Assembly (NCBI RefSeq): GCF_046105845.1
Contig: NZ_CP151004.1
DNA: 64,000 nucleotides
Source of the DNA: Escherichia coli
Lineage (GTDB): Bacteria > Pseudomonadota > Gammaproteobacteria > Enterobacterales > Enterobacteriaceae
Direction: 5' to 3' (one strand)
This document shows positions 855-9,129 of the stretch, piece by piece (positions within the stretch are counted from its first letter, which is position 1; each line of letters starts with the position of its first letter). The notes under the pieces were generated by a model. The model was given only the letters and a program-made list of their open reading frames with translations. It ran no database searches and was not told the DNA's origin. A program made the translations under genes and the position numbers.

Positions 855-1027
855 TAATACGCTTTCCCGCTACAGAGTCAAGCATTTATTTTTGCTTTCT
901 CTGCCGGAATTCTCAGGAGAACCCCGCTGACCCGGCGGCGTGTTTGCCGTTGTTCCGTGTCAGTGGTGGCGCATTATAGGGAGTTATTCCGGCCTGACAA
1001 GAGGAAATTTAAAATAATTTTCTGACC
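855..1027 (-). promoter_or_regulatory. rRNA operon tandem promoters P1 and P2 with UP element
   Basis: Minus-strand reading gives the canonical rrn P1 core (TTGTCA -35 at 995-1000, TATAAT -10 at 973-978, GCGC discriminator) preceded by an A/T-rich UP element at 1001-1027; a P2-like TATTAT -10 at 855-860. Confidence 0.7.
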
Positions 1028-1152
1028 GCGCATTTTTTCAGCAAAAGCCCCGTTAATGTGCCATAAAACAAGCAATTTGCCGTTTTTGCAACCGTAATCA
1101 CACTTCCTGGTGGCATACTAAGGAGGAATAAAAAGAAAAAGGAAGATTAGTA

Positions 1153-1845
1153 ATGCCTTTAAGCGCACAACAGTTAGCTGCACAGAAAAACCTTTCGTAT
1201 GTTCTGGCTGAGAAGCTGGCGCAACGCATCTTAAAAGGTGAATATGAACCCGGCACCATTTTGCCCGGTGAGATTGAGCTGGGCGAGCAATTTGGAGTGA
1301 GTCGTACAGCGGTACGCGAAGCGGTCAAAACGTTAACGGCAAAAGGGATGGTTTTACCGCGACCGCGAATTGGTACCCGGGTAATGCCACAATCGAACTG
1401 GAATTTTCTTGATCAGGAATTGCTTACCTGGTGGATGACAGAAGAGAACTTTCATCAGGTCATCGATCACTTTCTGGTTATGCGTATCTGTCTGGAGCCG
1501 CAAGCTTGCCTACTGGCTGCAACGGTTGGCACCGCGGAACAGAAGGCGCATCTCAATACGTTAATGGCCGAAATGGTGGCATTAAAAGAGAACTTTCGCC
1601 GTGAACGCTGGATTGAGGTCGATATGGCCTGGCATGAGCATATCTATGAAATGAGCGCCAATCCGTTTTTGACCTCATTCGCCTCGCTATTCCATTCGGT
1701 TTATCACACTTACTTCACGTCAATTACCAGCGACACAGTGATAAAGCTGGATCTGCATCAGGCGATTGTCGATGCGATTATCCAAAGCGATGGCGACGCG
1801 GCATTTAAAGCTTGTCAGGCGCTGCTACGCTCACCTGATAAGTGA
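1153..1845 (+). CDS. yieP: GntR/FadR-family transcriptional regulator
   Basis: 230-aa ORF with N-terminal winged-HTH (GVSRTAVREAVKTL) and FCD-like C-terminus; position next to hsrA. Confidence 0.85.
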   Translation: MPLSAQQLAAQKNLSYVLAEKLAQRILKGEYEPGTILPGEIELGEQFGVSRTAVREAVKTLTAKGMVLPRPRIGTRVMPQSNWNFLDQELLTWWMTEENFHQVIDHFLVMRICLEPQACLLAATVGTAEQKAHLNTLMAEMVALKENFRRERWIEVDMAWHEHIYEMSANPFLTSFASLFHSVYHTYFTSITSDTVIKLDLHQAIVDAIIQSDGDAAFKACQALLRSPDK

Positions 1846-1867
1846 CACCCCGATAACAGGACATTGA

Positions 1868-3295
1868 ATGAGCGATAAAAAGAAGCGCAGTATGGCGGGT
1901 TTGCCGTGGATCGCGGCGATGGCCTTCTTCATGCAGGCACTTGATGCCACTATTCTGAATACCGCCTTACCCGCAATCGCTCATAGCCTTAATCGTTCTC
2001 CTCTCGCGATGCAATCAGCCATCATCAGTTATACGCTGACGGTGGCGATGCTTATTCCGGTAAGCGGATGGCTAGCCGATCGCTTCGGTACGCGTCGCAT
2101 ATTTACCCTTGCCGTGAGTCTGTTCACGTTGGGTTCTCTGGCCTGCGCACTTTCTAACTCGCTACCACAGTTGGTTGTCTTCCGGGTTATTCAGGGGATA
2201 GGCGGCGCAATGATGATGCCTGTTGCTCGGCTGGCCTTACTGCGCGCTTATCCTCGTAATGAGCTTCTTCCTGTATTGAATTTTGTCGCCATGCCGGGTC
2301 TGGTGGGGCCAATTTTAGGCCCCGTTCTTGGCGGCGTGCTGGTCACCTGGGCAACCTGGCACTGGATATTTTTAATCAATATCCCCATAGGTATTGCGGG
2401 CCTTCTTTACGCGCGCAAACATATGCCCAATTTCACCACCGCACGACGCAGATTCGATATCACTGGCTTTTTGCTGTTTGGCCTTAGCCTTGTTCTCTTC
2501 TCAAGCGGAATAGAGCTATTCGGGGAAAAGATTGTCGCCAGTTGGATTGCCTTGACGGTAATTGTCACCAGCATCGGGTTACTGCTTCTCTATATTCTCC
2601 ATGCACGACGCACGCCAAACCCATTAATTTCATTAGATTTATTTAAAACCCGCACTTTCTCGATCGGTATCGTAGGCAATATTGCAACCCGTCTGGGGAC
2701 CGGTTGTGTACCGTTCCTTATGCCATTGATGTTACAGGTAGGATTTGGTTATCAGGCGTTTATTGCCGGCTGTATGATGGCACCGACAGCGTTAGGTTCC
2801 ATTATTGCAAAATCGATGGTTACCCAAGTCTTACGTCGTCTGGGCTATCGCCATACGTTAGTGGGGATCACGGTGATTATTGGGCTAATGATCGCTCAGT
2901 TCTCTTTGCAATCACCGGCAATGGCGATATGGATGCTGATCTTGCCGTTGTTTATATTAGGGATGGCTATGTCGACGCAATTTACCGCGATGAATACCAT
3001 CACACTTGCCGATCTGACCGATGACAACGCCAGCAGCGGTAACAGTGTTCTGGCGGTCACGCAGCAACTGTCTATCAGTTTAGGCGTTGCTGTAAGTGCG
3101 GCCGTCCTTCGCGTTTATGAAGGGATGGAAGGTACAACGACTGTCGAACAATTCCACTATACGTTTATCACAATGGGCATTATTACTGTTGCTTCAGCAG
3201 CAATGTTCATGCTTCTGAAAACAACCGATGGTAATAATTTGATCAAAAGACAGCGTAAATCTAAGCCGAACCGCGTTCCATCAGAATCGGAGTAA
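1868..3295 (+). CDS. hsrA: MFS transporter (putative efflux)
   Basis: 475-aa ORF, multiple hydrophobic TM segments, MFS signature around [11 protein letters not shown]. Confidence 0.85.
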
Positions 3296-4253
3296 GTTGT
3301 AATCGTTGTTGCTGAAGGGTCGGTTGGGTTATCCGATGGATGAGTACATCAATCGCCAGCTCCCCCAGTTCATCTTTCGGTTGATGGATAGTGGTTAATG
3401 GTGGCGTCATAAAGCTTGCCAGTTCGATATCGTCATAGCCAATCACCGCGATATCCTGCGGAACCTGTAACTCTGCCTGATATAGCGCCTGGTAAACGCC
3501 AACAGCCATAGCGTCATTTCCGGTAAAGACGGCCTGAGGACGCAGCGGATGTGATAACAGTTGGCGCATAGCGTCAAACCCGCCGTTAAATTCAAAATCA
3601 CCAGTGACTTCATAGCCATCAGGAATGTTGAGACCCGCACGTTTCATCGCCGCCCGATAACCTTCCAACCGCAGGCGCGCCGGAGTTTTATCCAGCGGGC
3701 CGGTAATACAGGCGATACGGGTATGACCTTTATCGATCAGATATTGCGTTGCTAAGTCTCCGCCCAGCAACGAGTTATCCTGAATAAGATCGCTGTCGCC
3801 ATCGAACGGTGCCCAGTCCATCATCACGGTAGGCACTGTCGGATAACGTTGCATGATTTCACGCGAAGGCTGATGCGTTTCGGTGCACAGTAACAGCAAG
3901 CCATCAACGCGTTTTTGCATCAGCGTTTCCAGATTGCGATTCATCCGCTGTTCATCGCCTTCGGTATTGCATAGGACAAGACTATAACCGCGTTCGAAGC
4001 AGCTGCGTTCAACGCCACGCACCAGTTCAGAATAGAAAGGATTGGTACTGGCAGTGATCAACATGCCAATGGTATGTGTTTGATTGAGTTTGAGGCTACG
4101 CGCCAGAGCTGATGGCGCGTAATTGAGTTCTTTAATCGCCGCTTCAACTTTGGCGGTAATCGCTTCACTGACGAAGCGATCTTTATTGATAACGTGAGAA
4201 ACTGTTGAGGTAGAAACGCCCGCCAGGCGGGCAACATCTTTCATTGTAGCCAA
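3261..4253 (-). CDS. rbsR: LacI-family ribose operon repressor
   Basis: 330-aa ORF, N-terminal [26 protein letters not shown], periplasmic-binding-fold C-terminus; last gene of rbs operon. Confidence 0.9.
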
Positions 4254-4256
4254 GCG

Positions 4257-5186
4257 TCACCTCTGCCTGTCTAAAAATGCGTCGATCTCTTCACGCCACG
4301 GTACGGAAGGTTGTGCGCCTTTACGCGTTACGGCAATCGCAGCGGCGGCATGGGCAAAACGAATCGCCTCTGGCAATGGTTTTTCTTCCAGCAACGCCGT
4401 GATTAACGCGCCGTTAAAGGTATCTCCGGCAGCAATGGTATCGACAGCCTGCACCCGGAATCCAGGAACGCGCTGACCTTCACCATTCACGCTAGCCCAT
4501 ACACCACGACTTCCTAAAGTAATCAGTACAGTACGGATACCTTTTTCATGCAGTACCTGCGCCGCCTTCGCTGCATCTTCATCATTTTCAACACGAATAC
4601 CGGTGAGCTTTTCTGCTTCCGTTTCGTTTGGCGTAATAATGTCTACCAGTGCCAGCAGTTCGTCAGGAAGTTCGCGAGCCGGAGCCGGGTTAAGCGCAAC
4701 GATAGTCTTATTTTGATGGGCGATTTTCGCCGCTGCCATCACACTTTCGAGTGGTGATTCCAGCTGCATTAATAATGCTGACGCGTTGGCAATACGCTCA
4801 CGTTGCGCTTCAACCAGCGCAGGGGAAAGGGCAGCATTAGCGCCGGCATGAATACCGATGACATTCTCACCTTCGCCATTAACAAAAATCAGCGCCACAC
4901 CTGTTGATTCGCCTTTGATCACGCTGACCGGAGAAATATCGATGTTATCAGTGGCGAGCTGCTGGCGAACGCTCTCGCCAATGCTGTCATCGCCCGTACA
5001 GGCAATAAACGCGATATTCGCACCGCTACGCCCAGCAGCCACAGCCTGATTAGCGCCTTTGCCGCCAAATGCAACCTGATAGTGGTTACCGGTTACGGTT
5101 TCGCCTGGAGTAGGAAAAGATTGAAGATTAAGAATGTGGTCAGCATTAATGCTGCCAAGAACAACGAGGCTGCCTGCGTTTTGCAT
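4257..5186 (-). CDS. rbsK: ribokinase
   Basis: PfkB-family motifs (GGKGANQA, DTIAAGDTFNGA); start chosen at MQNAGSLVVLG rather than the upstream in-frame ATG of the ORF track. Confidence 0.9.
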   Translation of the reverse strand: MQNAGSLVVLGSINADHILNLQSFPTPGETVTGNHYQVAFGGKGANQAVAAGRSGANIAFIACTGDDSIGESVRQQLATDNIDISPVSVIKGESTGVALIFVNGEGENVIGIHAGANAALSPALVEAQRERIANASALLMQLESPLESVMAAAKIAHQNKTIVALNPAPARELPDELLALVDIITPNETEAEKLTGIRVENDEDAAKAAQVLHEKGIRTVLITLGSRGVWASVNGEGQRVPGFRVQAVDTIAAGDTFNGALITALLEEKPLPEAIRFAHAAAAIAVTRKGAQPSVPWREEIDAFLDRQR

Positions 5187-5311
5187 ATTCGGGATGTCCA
5201 TAAAATGCGCCACCGTGTTAGGGTGGCGCGTGCCCTGCTTTTCTTTATATTACACGTTCATCTGTCGATGCCGTATTTATGTCACCATCAGGTCATACAA
5301 CCTGATTAAAA

Positions 5312-6202
5312 CTACTGCTTAACAACCAGTTTCAGATCAACCGGATACTTAGCCTGAACTTTCTCACCTTTCAGTACTTTATCGGCGGTTTCGACGCCTT
5401 TCGCGCCAATCTGATCGGGTAGCTGAGCGATAGTCGCTGCTAGTTTGCCATCATTCACCGCTTTTTCGCCATCCGGTGTACCGTCAAATCCGACGACCAT
5501 CACATCCGATTTACCGGCAGTTTGCAGTGCGCGCAGCGCGCCCAGCGCCATTTCATCATTCTGCGCGAATACAGCCTGAACATCCGGATGTGCGGTCAAC
5601 AGGTTCTGCATTACGTTCAAACCTTTAGTGCGATCAAAATCTGCTGGCTGGCTGGCAAGAACATTAAACTTGTGAGCAGCAACAGCCTGCTGGAAGCCTT
5701 CGCCACGTTCACGGGCTGCGGATGTACCGGCAATGCCTTGCAGCTCGATAACTTTGGCACCTTCACCCGCTTTCTTCGCGATGTAATCACCGGCGATTTT
5801 GCCGCCCAGTACGTTATCAGAAGCAATGTGGCTCACCACTTCACCTTTCGTTGCCTGGCGGTCAAGAGTGATAACCGGGATGTTCGCCTGGTTAGCCATC
5901 TTCACAGCATTACCCACTGCGTCGGAGTCGGTCGGGTTAATCAGCAGAATTTTGGTGCCGCGAACGGTTAAGTCCTGCACGTTCGCCAGCTCTTTCGCCG
6001 GGTTGTTCTGGGAGTCCAGCACCACCAGGTTATAGCCAAGTTTATCCGCCTCTTTCTGCGCGCCATCTTTCAGCGATACAAAGAACGGGTTGTTAAGCGT
6101 GGAGACCACCAGCGCGATGGTGTCTTTTGCCATCGCATTCGCACTGACGGTGGCGCTTAGCGCAACTGCGGAAACCAGGGTAGCCAGTTTTTTCATGTTC
6201 AT
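5312..6202 (-). CDS. rbsB: ribose ABC transporter periplasmic binding protein
   Basis: Signal peptide followed by periplasmic sugar-binding fold; start at [10 protein letters not shown]. Confidence 0.9.
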
Positions 6203-6226
6203 ATTCAAGATGTCCTGTAGTCGTTA

Positions 6227-7192
6227 TTACTGCTTTTTGTTGTCTACCAGCACCGCCAGCAAAATCACCACCGCTTTGACGATCATCTGGTAATAGGAGG
6301 AAACACCTAACAAATTCAATCCATTATTAAGGAAGCCAAGAATTAATGCGCCGATCAACGTCCCAACAATGCGACCTTTTCCGCCCGCCAGACTCGTACC
6401 GCCCAGAACCACCGCAGCAATGGCATCCAGCTCATAGCCAGTCCCCGCCGTGGGTTGTGCGGAGGAGAGACGCGCCACTTCAATGATCCCGGCCAGCGAT
6501 GCCAGCAGACCACAAAGAGAATAGACGATGATTTTGATTTTATTGACGTTGATACCTGAAAGACGCGTTGCCGCTTCGTTGCCGCCCAGCGCGTAGATGT
6601 AACGCCCCAGACGCGTGTGATGCAGCATGTACCAGGCCGCGAGGAAGACAATTCCCATGATCCAGACTGGCGTCGGTACGCCCAGCGGACGACCGATCCC
6701 AAACCAGCCAAACAGATCGGCGTTCTCAGTAAAGCCGGTATTCACTGGGCTACCGTTGGTATAAACCATGGTCACGCCGCGCAGTAAAAGCATCATAACC
6801 AGCGTAGCGATAAACGCCTGGACGCGACCTTTCGCTACAATCACCCCGGTTACCGCACCAATTGCGGCACCTAATGCGAGAGCGGCAGCGACAGCCACCA
6901 GCGCATTGACTTCAATGCCGACGATAGATGCAGCAACTGCGCCGGTCAGCGCCAACAGAGAACCTACCGACAAGTCGATGCCCGACGTCAGGATCACCAG
7001 CGTCATCCCGACTGCCATAATGGCGTTCACCGAGGTTTGCTGGAGAATATTGAATAAGTTATTGATGGTGAAAAAGTTCGGACTTAACGTCGAGACAATC
7101 GCGATCAGCACCAGCAGAGCGATAAGCGATTTCTGCTCCATCAGCCACGCTTTCGTGAAATAACGGCGACCAGAGACAGTCTGGGTTGTCAT
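6227..7192 (-). CDS. rbsC: ribose ABC transporter permease
   Basis: 321-aa polytopic membrane protein in rbs operon order. Confidence 0.9.
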   Translation of the reverse strand: MTTQTVSGRRYFTKAWLMEQKSLIALLVLIAIVSTLSPNFFTINNLFNILQQTSVNAIMAVGMTLVILTSGIDLSVGSLLALTGAVAASIVGIEVNALVAVAAALALGAAIGAVTGVIVAKGRVQAFIATLVMMLLLRGVTMVYTNGSPVNTGFTENADLFGWFGIGRPLGVPTPVWIMGIVFLAAWYMLHHTRLGRYIYALGGNEAATRLSGINVNKIKIIVYSLCGLLASLAGIIEVARLSSAQPTAGTGYELDAIAAVVLGGTSLAGGKGRIVGTLIGALILGFLNNGLNLLGVSSYYQMIVKAVVILLAVLVDNKKQ

Positions 7193-7196
7193 TTTT

Positions 7197-8702
7197 TTAC
7201 TCCTGATTCACGCGATTAAGCTTGCCCACAGCGGCAGCCATTAACACTTCCTGGGTGGCCTGCTCACGAGTAAATTCCCCGCTGAGATGCCCTTCATGCA
7301 TGACGATGATGCGATCGCTCATGCCTAATACTTCTGGCATCTCCGATGACACCAGAATGATGCTCAATCCATCGGCTTTGAACTGGTTAATCAGTTGATA
7401 AATCTCTTTTTTCGCGCCGACATCTACGCCACGGGTAGGCTCATCGAGGATCAACACTTTGGGGCGTGTCATCAGACCGCGGGCAATCGCCACTTTTTGC
7501 TGATTGCCACCGGAAAGCAGACCAATTGCCTGTTCCATCGACGGCGTTTTCACATTGAACAGGCGAATAAAATCACTCACTGCCTGCTGTTCATCGGCAT
7601 GCTTCAAACTGCCGCCAGCGCGGCTAAAGTAGCGCAGCGCGGTCAGCGACATGTTCTCTTTTACTGACATGCCCAGCACTAAACCGTCGCGTTTACGGTC
7701 TTCGGAGATATAAACAATGCCGTTTGCCAGGCCATCCTGCGGTGAACGGGTAACAACTTCATGCCCATCCAGGGTGACGTAACCGCTGGTGCGCGGCAGT
7801 GCGCCGTAGAGCACTTTCATCAGTTCGGTACGACCTGCGCCCATCAAACCAGAGACGCCAAGAATTTCGCCTTTGCGTAAAGTAAAAGAGACATCGTTAA
7901 CGCCAGGTCCGCAGAGATTATCGACTTTCAGGCGAATATCTCCTGGCGCTTTGTCCAGGTGCGGATATTGATCTTCCAGCTTGCGGCCCACCATCATCTC
8001 AATCAGCGAATCTTCGGTCAGTGATGCTACTTCACGCTCAGCAATAAATTGCCCATCACGAAAAACGGTAACGTCATCGCAAATCTCGAAGATTTCTTTC
8101 ATGCGGTGGGAAATATAGACAATACCGCGGCCTTGCGATTTCAGCTCGCGGATGACGCGGAACAAGGATTCGGTTTCGGTATCGGTCAGCGCATCGGTCG
8201 GTTCATCCATAATGATGACTTTCGACTCAAAGCTCAGCACTTTGGCGATTTCAACCATTTGCTGGTCACCGATGGAAAGATCGCCCACCAGCTTGTCGCT
8301 TTTAAAGCGCAGGTTAAGTTTAGCCAGCAATTTATCCGCTTCGGCATACATGGTTTTCCAGTCAATTTTGCCAAAGCGATTAACAAACTCACGACCGAGG
8401 AAAATGTTTTCGGCAATGGTCAACTGCGGGATCAGGTTCAGTTCCTGATGGATAATCCCAATCCCGGCTTCCTGGGAAGATTTCGGCCCGGTAAACGTCG
8501 TTTCTTTCCCCAGCCATAAAAGCGTACCGGCATCGCGAGTATAGATACCCGTAAGCACTTTCATCATGGTGGATTTACCCGCACCGTTTTCGCCCACCAG
8601 CGCCATCACGCGGCCAGGATAGACATTTAACGCTGCACCCGAGAGGGCTTTTACGCCCGGGAAGGCTTTATCGATGCCTTTAAGCTGAAGTAATGCTTCC
8701 AT
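7197..8702 (-). CDS. rbsA: ribose ABC transporter ATP-binding protein (duplicated ATPase)
   Basis: 501-aa ORF with two Walker A motifs (GENGAGKST and GLMGAGRTE) and ABC signatures. Confidence 0.9.
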
Positions 8703-8709
8703 GACGGCC

Positions 8710-9129
8710 TCAGAACGTCACGCCAGCACAGAGAATGATATTCGCATACGGAGAACATTCTCCGCTGCGAATTACCGCCTGACTTTCTGCGGTTTGTTGT
8801 TTGAATTGTTCATGCGTGGTGTAACGAATTTCAATGGTATTTCCCTGGTGTTTTTGCAGCTGCTCAAGGTGAGTGAGCAACGTTTCGTGGAGTTGCGGAT
8901 TATGTTGTTTGATCTCTTCCGCGATAATGGCTGCCTCGACCTGCATTTCATTTGTGACGACGCCCAGCACCTGCATAAAAGAAGGTACACCCTGGGTTAA
9001 TGCCATATCTATACGCGTTGTACTTTTGGGGATGGGTAAACCAGCATCACATACCACCAGCGTATCGGTATGTCCCAGACGGGAGATCACCGATGAAATA
9101 TCAGAATTAAGAACGGTGCCTTTTTTCAT
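8710..9129 (-). CDS. rbsD: D-ribose pyranase
   Basis: 139-aa product starting [14 protein letters not shown]; first gene of rbs operon. Confidence 0.9.

Follow-up and report, generated by a model that had tools for sequence, protein, structure and literature searches.

The convergent genes hsrA and rbsR share the last 35 nt of their coding sequences in the 64,000-nucleotide stretch of Escherichia coli DNA analyzed here (the window): hsrA runs from 1868 to 3295 on the plus strand and rbsR from 3261 to 4253 on the minus strand, and the overlap, at 3261–3295, is evident in the open reading frame (ORF) listing, in the sequence itself and in a comparison of the junction across species. On the plus strand hsrA closes with a TAA at 3293–3295, and on the minus strand rbsR closes with a TAG at 3263–3261. 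We propose that this is, with high probability, a genuine and ordinary tail-to-tail gene pair whose overlapping transcripts are mostly a tolerated by-product. The original prediction, made from the sequence alone, had placed the end of hsrA at 3295 on the plus strand and that of rbsR at 3261 on the minus strand, with 35 nt shared between them, and the same ends are recovered from both the sequence and RefSeq. The latter gives hsrA at 1969–3396 (+) and rbsR at 3362–4354 (−) in its locus coordinates, i.e., at the window positions plus 101, and annotates identical ends for the two genes in two E. coli strains, K-12 MG1655 and 2013C-4282, the latter being the closest to the window. As a stop codon fixes the C-terminus of a protein unambiguously, chance is not an issue for the overlap.

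The overlap was already known, both from the standard E. coli reference annotation and from maps of overlapping transcription. For annotation work, the upshot is that neither the hsrA end nor the rbsR end needs correcting. The finding matters little in itself; it has a modest value as a clean worked example, and what is described below, a reconstruction by comparison and a footprint of dual coding, is tidy but unsurprising.

The two genes and their neighborhood

The overlap is embedded in the following gene neighborhood: a 16S rRNA gene (minus strand) at the start of the window, yieP and hsrA on the plus strand, and rbsR, rbsK, rbsB and rbsC on the minus strand. The yieP gene (1153–1845, +), recognized from its ORF and in RefSeq, codes for a FadR/GntR-family regulator and is the first gene of the yieP–hsrA operon, which displays conserved synteny (PMC11340327). 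Each member of the overlapping pair closes its own operon, with hsrA being the last gene of yieP–hsrA and rbsR the last gene of rbsDACBKR.

The product of hsrA, as identified by its ORF, RefSeq, Pfam and NCBIfam, is a 475-residue transporter of the DHA2 type in the MFS superfamily. Its Pfam MFS_1 domain spans residues 17–406, the match to the NCBIfam profile NF007799 takes in only residues 13–465 of the 475, and the closest solved structure is that of EmrB. RefSeq/PGAP names the gene in the window “mdtD” (multidrug transporter subunit MdtD) because its product passes the subfamily cut-off of NF007799 (458.6 bits against 426); this label seems to be a family name applied too broadly. We take the gene at 1868–3295 to be hsrA (yieO), with the canonical mdtD presumably located elsewhere, in the mdtABCD–baeSR operon.

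The rbsR gene (3261–4253, −) codes for the 330-residue LacI-family ribose operon repressor, an identification that is concordant between its ORF, RefSeq, NCBIfam, Pfam and the PDB. The NCBIfam equivalog profile NF007743 covers residues 1–330 of 330 with a score of 697 bits, the Pfam Peripla_BP_3 domain extends to residue 329, the homology with PurR reaches that same residue, and residues 2–330 are identical to the PDB entries 9ny7 and 9ny8 (“Ribose operon repressor”). Both overlapping ORFs are real genes of known family, and the names hsrA and rbsR given to them in the original prediction are right. Since NF007799 ends at residue 465 and the RbsR profile is complete, the overlap represents, for HsrA, an add-on beyond the core of the family and, for RbsR, a portion of a conserved domain. 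The two frames stand in the phase 123:132, in which the wobble position of rbsR faces codon position 2 of hsrA; this is the most frequent phase among convergent overlaps of at least 5 nt (PMC2174442).

The start sites on the rbs side also deserve comment. The annotated start of rbsR is a TTG that lies 3 nt past the rbsK stop on the minus strand (TGA cgc TTG, window 4251–4259), a context that suggests translational coupling to rbsK along with weak independent initiation. The longest ORF for rbsK (4257–5213, −) begins with a GTG at 5213 and codes for 318 residues; the RefSeq start, at window position 5186, yields 309 residues, with the longest ORF beginning 27 nt upstream of it. The shorter version is the more plausible one because the extra stretch crosses the terminator hairpin of rbsB.

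The locus is a nearly constant feature of the species: of 5426 complete E. coli genomes, 5414 contain a match to an 801-nt query comprising positions 2900–3700, and in 5360 the match reaches at least 95% identity over at least 80% of the query. Two strains carry deletions at the locus. In E. coli JNE181771 (locus L083, 2788–2806) the deletion fuses a truncated hsrA to a truncated rbsK, with the loss of rbsR and of the overlap. In E. coli W (locus L084, 1862–2795) the deletion removes the 3′ end of rbsC, rbsB, rbsK and the 5′ end of rbsR, and the end of rbsR that overlaps hsrA is kept.

Origin of the overlap and constraint on the HsrA tail

We compared the locus from 80 Enterobacteriaceae species, which with the window make up 81 sequences; the E. 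coli records L001 and L002 were left out. The genes hsrA and rbsR are convergent and abutting in all 80 species, with arrangements ranging between a gap of 3 nt and an overlap of 53 nt, and the junctions can be divided into the following classes: The 35-nt overlap is found in the window and in 36 further species, 37 sequences in total, from Escherichia, Salmonella, Citrobacter, Intestinirhabdus, Enterobacter and Leclercia. An overlap of 4 nt is seen in 26 sequences, from Raoultella, Pseudocitrobacter, Yokenella, Trabulsiella, Pluralibacter, Franconibacter, Siccibacter, Buttiauxella and others, a count that includes three loci (L054, L079 and L082) whose stops were placed via conserved motifs, as their tblastn alignments cross stop codons. 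In this class the two stop codons themselves overlap, as TTAA, CTAA or CTAG, and it represents the most frequent state once the Escherichia/Salmonella/Citrobacter and Enterobacter/Leclercia/Lelliottia groups are set aside. Six Kosakonia sequences display an overlap of 9 nt and Kosakonia oryzendophytica alone one of 24 nt (1 sequence), and in eight sequences from Kluyvera and Phytobacter the genes are separated by 2–3 nt. Finally, an overlap of 53 nt is seen in five sequences of Lelliottia and Huaxiibacter (L030, L033, L034, L036 and L044, with an Enterobacter MAG among them), in which the rbsR stop has been lost through a TAG to TCG change (CTA to CGA on the plus strand), adding six residues to RbsR (e.g., SAGGDL). 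This form is a second, independent extension at the junction. Thus, a single junction passes through three relative reading phases across the family, from a small gap to overlaps of 4, 9, 24, 35 and 53 nt, with these states being produced by single-base indels and one stop-codon loss.

Two of the compared loci stand out for their labels. The locus L035, from a contig titled “Chryseobacterium sp. 18061”, is an Enterobacteriaceae yieP–hsrA–rbsR locus that clusters beside that of “Citrobacter sp. 18056” (L027) and probably derives from a mislabelled or contaminated assembly. L027 in turn groups with Pseudocitrobacter-like loci rather than with Citrobacter.

The spacing of the terminal codons offers a handle on how these classes are related. 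From the conserved codons for Asp-Gly-x-Asn-Leu-Ile to the rbsR stop there are 38 nt (give or take whole codons) in 8 of the 8 displayed species with the 4-nt overlap, 37 nt (plus whole codons) in 8 of the 8 displayed long-form sequences and 39 nt in Kosakonia, which implies that single-base indels in the final codons of hsrA set the classes apart. The short-form HsrA homologs terminate at …ERHK(KA)*. In E. coli a CTAA tetramer persists at 3261–3264, readable on both strands, which by comparison of the junctions appears to be a relic of the 4-nt stop–stop overlap; hsrA reads through it as TCT-AAG, with the TAA out of frame, and proceeds for 31 nt past the old stop, such that its actual TAA at 3293–3295 lies antisense to the rbsR codons for Leu320 (CTT) and Thr321 (ACT). 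The C-terminal extension of HsrA that results, as delimited by the short-form homologs and by the end of the profile match at residue 465, consists of codons 466–475 and the TAA stop (3263–3295, +).

Based on these observations, we suggest that the 4-nt stop–stop overlap was probably the ancestral state, a polarity that draws on parsimony and on the presence of the short form in Buttiauxella and Franconibacter rather than on a rooted species tree. The loss of 1 nt within the final few codons of hsrA would have thrown the ancestral stop out of frame, as the comparison of the two forms indicates; hsrA would then have read on antisense to the C-terminal codons of RbsR, acquiring about 10 hydrophilic residues on the cytoplasmic tail of HsrA. 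The sequence of the overlap would be dictated by RbsR, and the HsrA tail would be tolerated because the RbsR sequence is left unchanged. In a neighbor-joining tree of the locus the long form occupies two non-sister clades, namely Escherichia/Salmonella/Citrobacter/Intestinirhabdus and Enterobacter/Leclercia/Lelliottia, and the deep branches are short. Hence, the deletion might have occurred once, with the deep branching being poorly resolved, or twice, or might have been transferred between the two clades. The comparison points to the displacement of a stop codon, followed by extension into the neighbor, as the likely origin of the overlap.

That the extension is more than a stretch of ORF is suggested by its effect on the opposite strand. 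In the long-overlap species the wobble diversity of the last 10 codons of rbsR is 0.255, corresponding to the 0.7th percentile of all 10-codon windows of the gene, whereas in the short-overlap species it is 0.483, at the 56th percentile. Similarly, the four-fold sites of rbsR in the long-overlap species have a diversity of 0.229 in the overlap versus 0.521 upstream, with none of 20,000 resamples being as low, and the corresponding values in the short-overlap species are 0.465 and 0.516 (P = 0.22). These figures carry a small ascertainment effect, in that a T or C at the wobble position of rbsR codon 324 creates an hsrA stop and thereby removes the species from the 35-nt class; the reduction in diversity persists when codon 324 is set aside. 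On the protein side, the HsrA tail displays the recurrent pattern KP…PS[E/K]xE across genera. Without constraint on the tail, the synonymous sites of rbsR would be expected to vary there as much as in the rest of the gene; as they are unusually conserved, and only in the stretch that also codes for the hsrA tail, translation of the tail is probable, and the tail appears to be under some purifying selection, with the constraint being weak. The junction thereby provides a measurable dual-coding footprint, in which the four-fold sites of rbsR are conserved only opposite the hsrA tail.

These data also bear on the reading under which the overlap would be an artefact of annotation or ORF-calling, with the true HsrA ending near residue 465. 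Such a reading could appeal to the NCBIfam profile match, which stops at precisely that residue, and to the HsrA proteins of Raoultella, Pseudocitrobacter, Yokenella, Pluralibacter, Franconibacter, Buttiauxella, Kluyvera and others, which end in …ERHK(KA)*. However, the window, K-12 and 41 other long-form species have no in-frame stop before the one at 3293, and a stop codon, unlike a start codon, allows no choice of C-terminus. Moreover, the tail pattern remains recognizable from one genus to another, and the reduced variation at the rbsR four-fold sites opposite the tail is confined to the species that possess the extension. A sequencing error is made unlikely by the 5360 genomes that carry the region. 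We accordingly reject this reading, to which we would grant next to no credence, as it is contradicted by the sequence itself in having no earlier hsrA stop in frame. The original prediction had looked to an alignment of homologs to settle the C-terminus of HsrA, and this alignment does find that the HsrA of other genera ends about 10 residues earlier; the difference is a lineage-specific extension, and the E. coli end stands. Homologs that end earlier are thus not a valid test of the C-terminus of the E. coli protein.

Transcription and termination at the junction

Scans of 2600–4000 and 1000–9000 recovered no intrinsic terminator, in the form of a hairpin followed by a T-run, on either strand at or near 3261–3295. 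A plus-strand candidate at 2879–2900 was rejected, as it lies upstream of the hsrA stop and is within chance expectation. Likewise, no bidirectional intrinsic terminator, with a GC-rich hairpin, an A-tract and a T-tract, is present at the junction, and the 201-nt RNAs spanning 3240–3440 (+) and 3310–3110 (−) fold no better than their shuffled versions (z = −0.42 and −0.70). The C/G ratio in 100-nt windows downstream of either stop is mostly 1.0–1.5, without a strong bias; this composition, which is uninformative as a proxy, reveals no obvious rut (Rho loading) site downstream of either stop.

Published K-12 data sets provide evidence for the transcripts themselves. These all come from a strain other than that of the window, under LB-type conditions without ribose induction, and were brought into the window by the conversion k + w = 3942470 between K-12 (k) and window (w) positions, which was checked on two anchors. 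On the hsrA strand, a bicyclomycin-sensitive Rho termination region has been reported at the K-12 coordinate 3938923 (−), with a score of 2.78 and a significance of 7.6e-6 (PMC7815308). Its center (supplementary file 2 of that study) maps to approximately 3547 on the plus strand of the window, antisense to rbsR and about 250 nt inside it past the hsrA stop, the position being coarse, as the Rho calls compare windows of 800 nt. In the lists of the same study, neither a Rho region nor a 3′ end of the rbsR mRNA falls within hsrA. Further, a duplex of the RNase III type, with 22 nt per strand and 2-nt overhangs, was captured by p19 at about 1.9 and 2.7 reads per million (RPM; PMC7373196, Table S3); it maps with no mismatches to 3260–3283 on both strands. 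For comparison, dsRNA clusters were called in that study at about 23 RPM or more, and at least 1 RPM was obtained from 87% of genes (PMC7373196). Finally, rbsR–hsrA is among the 165 convergent excludons, pairs of adjacent genes with overlapping transcripts from opposite strands, that were detected by RNA-seq in at least 50% of 58 MG1655 transcriptomes (PMC12288877).

Taken together, the captured duplex at 3260–3283, the Rho region near 3547 and the excludon listing uphold the contention of the original prediction that the two genes are transcribed into each other. Its companion claim, that the overlap leaves no room for terminators, holds insofar as there is neither intergenic DNA nor an intrinsic terminator at the junction; the refinement is that termination is displaced into the partner gene rather than being absent. 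More generally, where coding sequences overlap convergently, termination is moved into the partner gene, in this instance by Rho.

The rbs side presents a different picture, with termination signals well upstream of the overlap. An intrinsic terminator, recovered by both the terminator scan and Term-seq, follows rbsB on the minus strand (5192–5229), comprising a hairpin at 5229–5207 and a T-run; the hairpin has the sequence GCGCCACCCTAACACGGTGGCGC and the T-run comes immediately after it. The 3′ end at 5192 is presumably that of RbsZ, the sRNA derived from rbsB. The end at 5192 features among the “orphan” Term-seq 3′ ends, with very high scores of 84576 and 28585 (PMC7815308). This terminator attenuates transcription into rbsK–rbsR. 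A second site lies within the 5′ part of rbsR, where a Rho region at about 4083 (score 3.77, p = 1.4e-13) is accompanied by a Term-seq 3′ end at 4145 (4083–4145, −; PMC7815308, supplementary files 1–3). A hairpin in the form of a perfect 8-bp palindrome at 4159–4180 is situated beside the Rho region and the 3′ end, about 100–170 nt inside rbsR, and this suggests premature termination within rbsR itself. With the rbsB terminator and the Rho region and 3′ end in the 5′ part of rbsR acting in succession, only a fraction of rbs transcription reaches the overlap.

These observations can be assembled into a simple account of the junction. In the absence of an intrinsic terminator, each transcript that reaches the junction enters the other gene; the one from the hsrA strand is stopped by Rho about 250 nt into rbsR, and most of the transcription from the rbs side ends earlier, at the terminator after rbsB and at the Rho site near the 5′ end of rbsR. 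RNase III cleaves the short sense–antisense duplex between the two to a small extent. In our view, the transcripts overlap mostly because the junction is compact, a by-product that is tolerated, and the overlap is not a dedicated switch.

The main competing reading sees the junction as a regulatory excludon that has been selected to be free of terminators, such that inducing one operon lowers the expression of the other. On this account ribose together with cAMP–CRP would induce rbsDACBKR and YieP would induce yieP–hsrA, with polymerase collision and RNase III cleavage effecting the antagonism. The presence of rbsR–hsrA in the list of 165 convergent excludons (PMC12288877) and the capture by p19 of an RNase III-type duplex from precisely the shared stretch (PMC7373196) are in its favor, as are the lack of an intrinsic terminator at the junction and the near-zero spacer in 80 of the 80 species, for a tight junction could itself be the object of selection. 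However, the coding overlap alone would trivially place the pair on such a list once both genes are transcribed, and the duplex is rare, at about 2–3 RPM against the cluster threshold of about 23 RPM (PMC7373196). Moreover, the rbsB terminator and the Rho region early in rbsR largely halt transcription from the rbs side before the overlap, neither PMC12288877 nor PMC11340327 gives anticorrelated expression or a phenotype for the pair, and ribose catabolism is not known to be functionally connected with HsrA. Hence, we consider the regulatory reading to be unlikely. A related notion, in which the junction serves as an antisense coupling device, with read-through from rbs dampening yieP–hsrA or the reverse, and the HsrA tail possesses a function of its own, strikes us as likewise unlikely. 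The tolerated by-product thus remains our preferred reading of the junction.

Comparison with known overlapping gene pairs

Termination inside a convergent neighbor has a precedent in the Rho-dependent termination described by Adams et al. (2021, PMC7815308), to which the hsrA strand conforms, with its Rho region lying antisense to rbsR. Indeed, Rho termination is the usual fate of untranslated RNA past a stop codon, and the hsrA transcript follows this pattern. Such termination within the partner is listed for the hsrA strand only.

A second parallel is offered by the excludons. The pair is explicitly listed as rbsR–hsrA by ExcludonFinder (PMC12288877), the two transcripts overlap in vivo in the published K-12 data sets, and an RNase III-type duplex has been captured from them. 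The classical excludons, however, are characterized by overlaps of long 5′ or 3′ UTRs and by a demonstrated reciprocity of expression, whereas the rbsR–hsrA overlap follows automatically from the coding sequences, its duplex is rare, and a reciprocity of expression would be hypothetical.

The closest relatives of the junction are the convergent gene overlaps surveyed by Lillo and Krakauer (2007, PMC2174442), who recorded 58 of them in E. coli, recognized a 4-nt tetramer class and attributed their origin to stop-codon mutation. They made the same general point about displaced termination: for 21 of the 58, a rho-independent terminator belongs to one gene or both and must sit within coding sequence. 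Like these pairs, hsrA and rbsR are two bona fide genes on opposite strands that share their 3′ ends, and their short form is the classic 4-nt stop–stop overlap (CTAA, TTAA or CTAG). The long form of hsrA likewise appears to have arisen by losing access to its former stop and reading through to the following one. Unlike the point mutation of a stop codon envisaged in that survey, hsrA seems to have been displaced by a 1-nt deletion just upstream of its stop; the point-mutation type is nevertheless represented at the same junction by the rbsR of Lelliottia and Huaxiibacter, where the change from TAG to TCG yields the 53-nt overlap. With its phase of 123:132, the hsrA/rbsR junction takes its place as one of the approximately 58 convergent pairs of E. 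coli.
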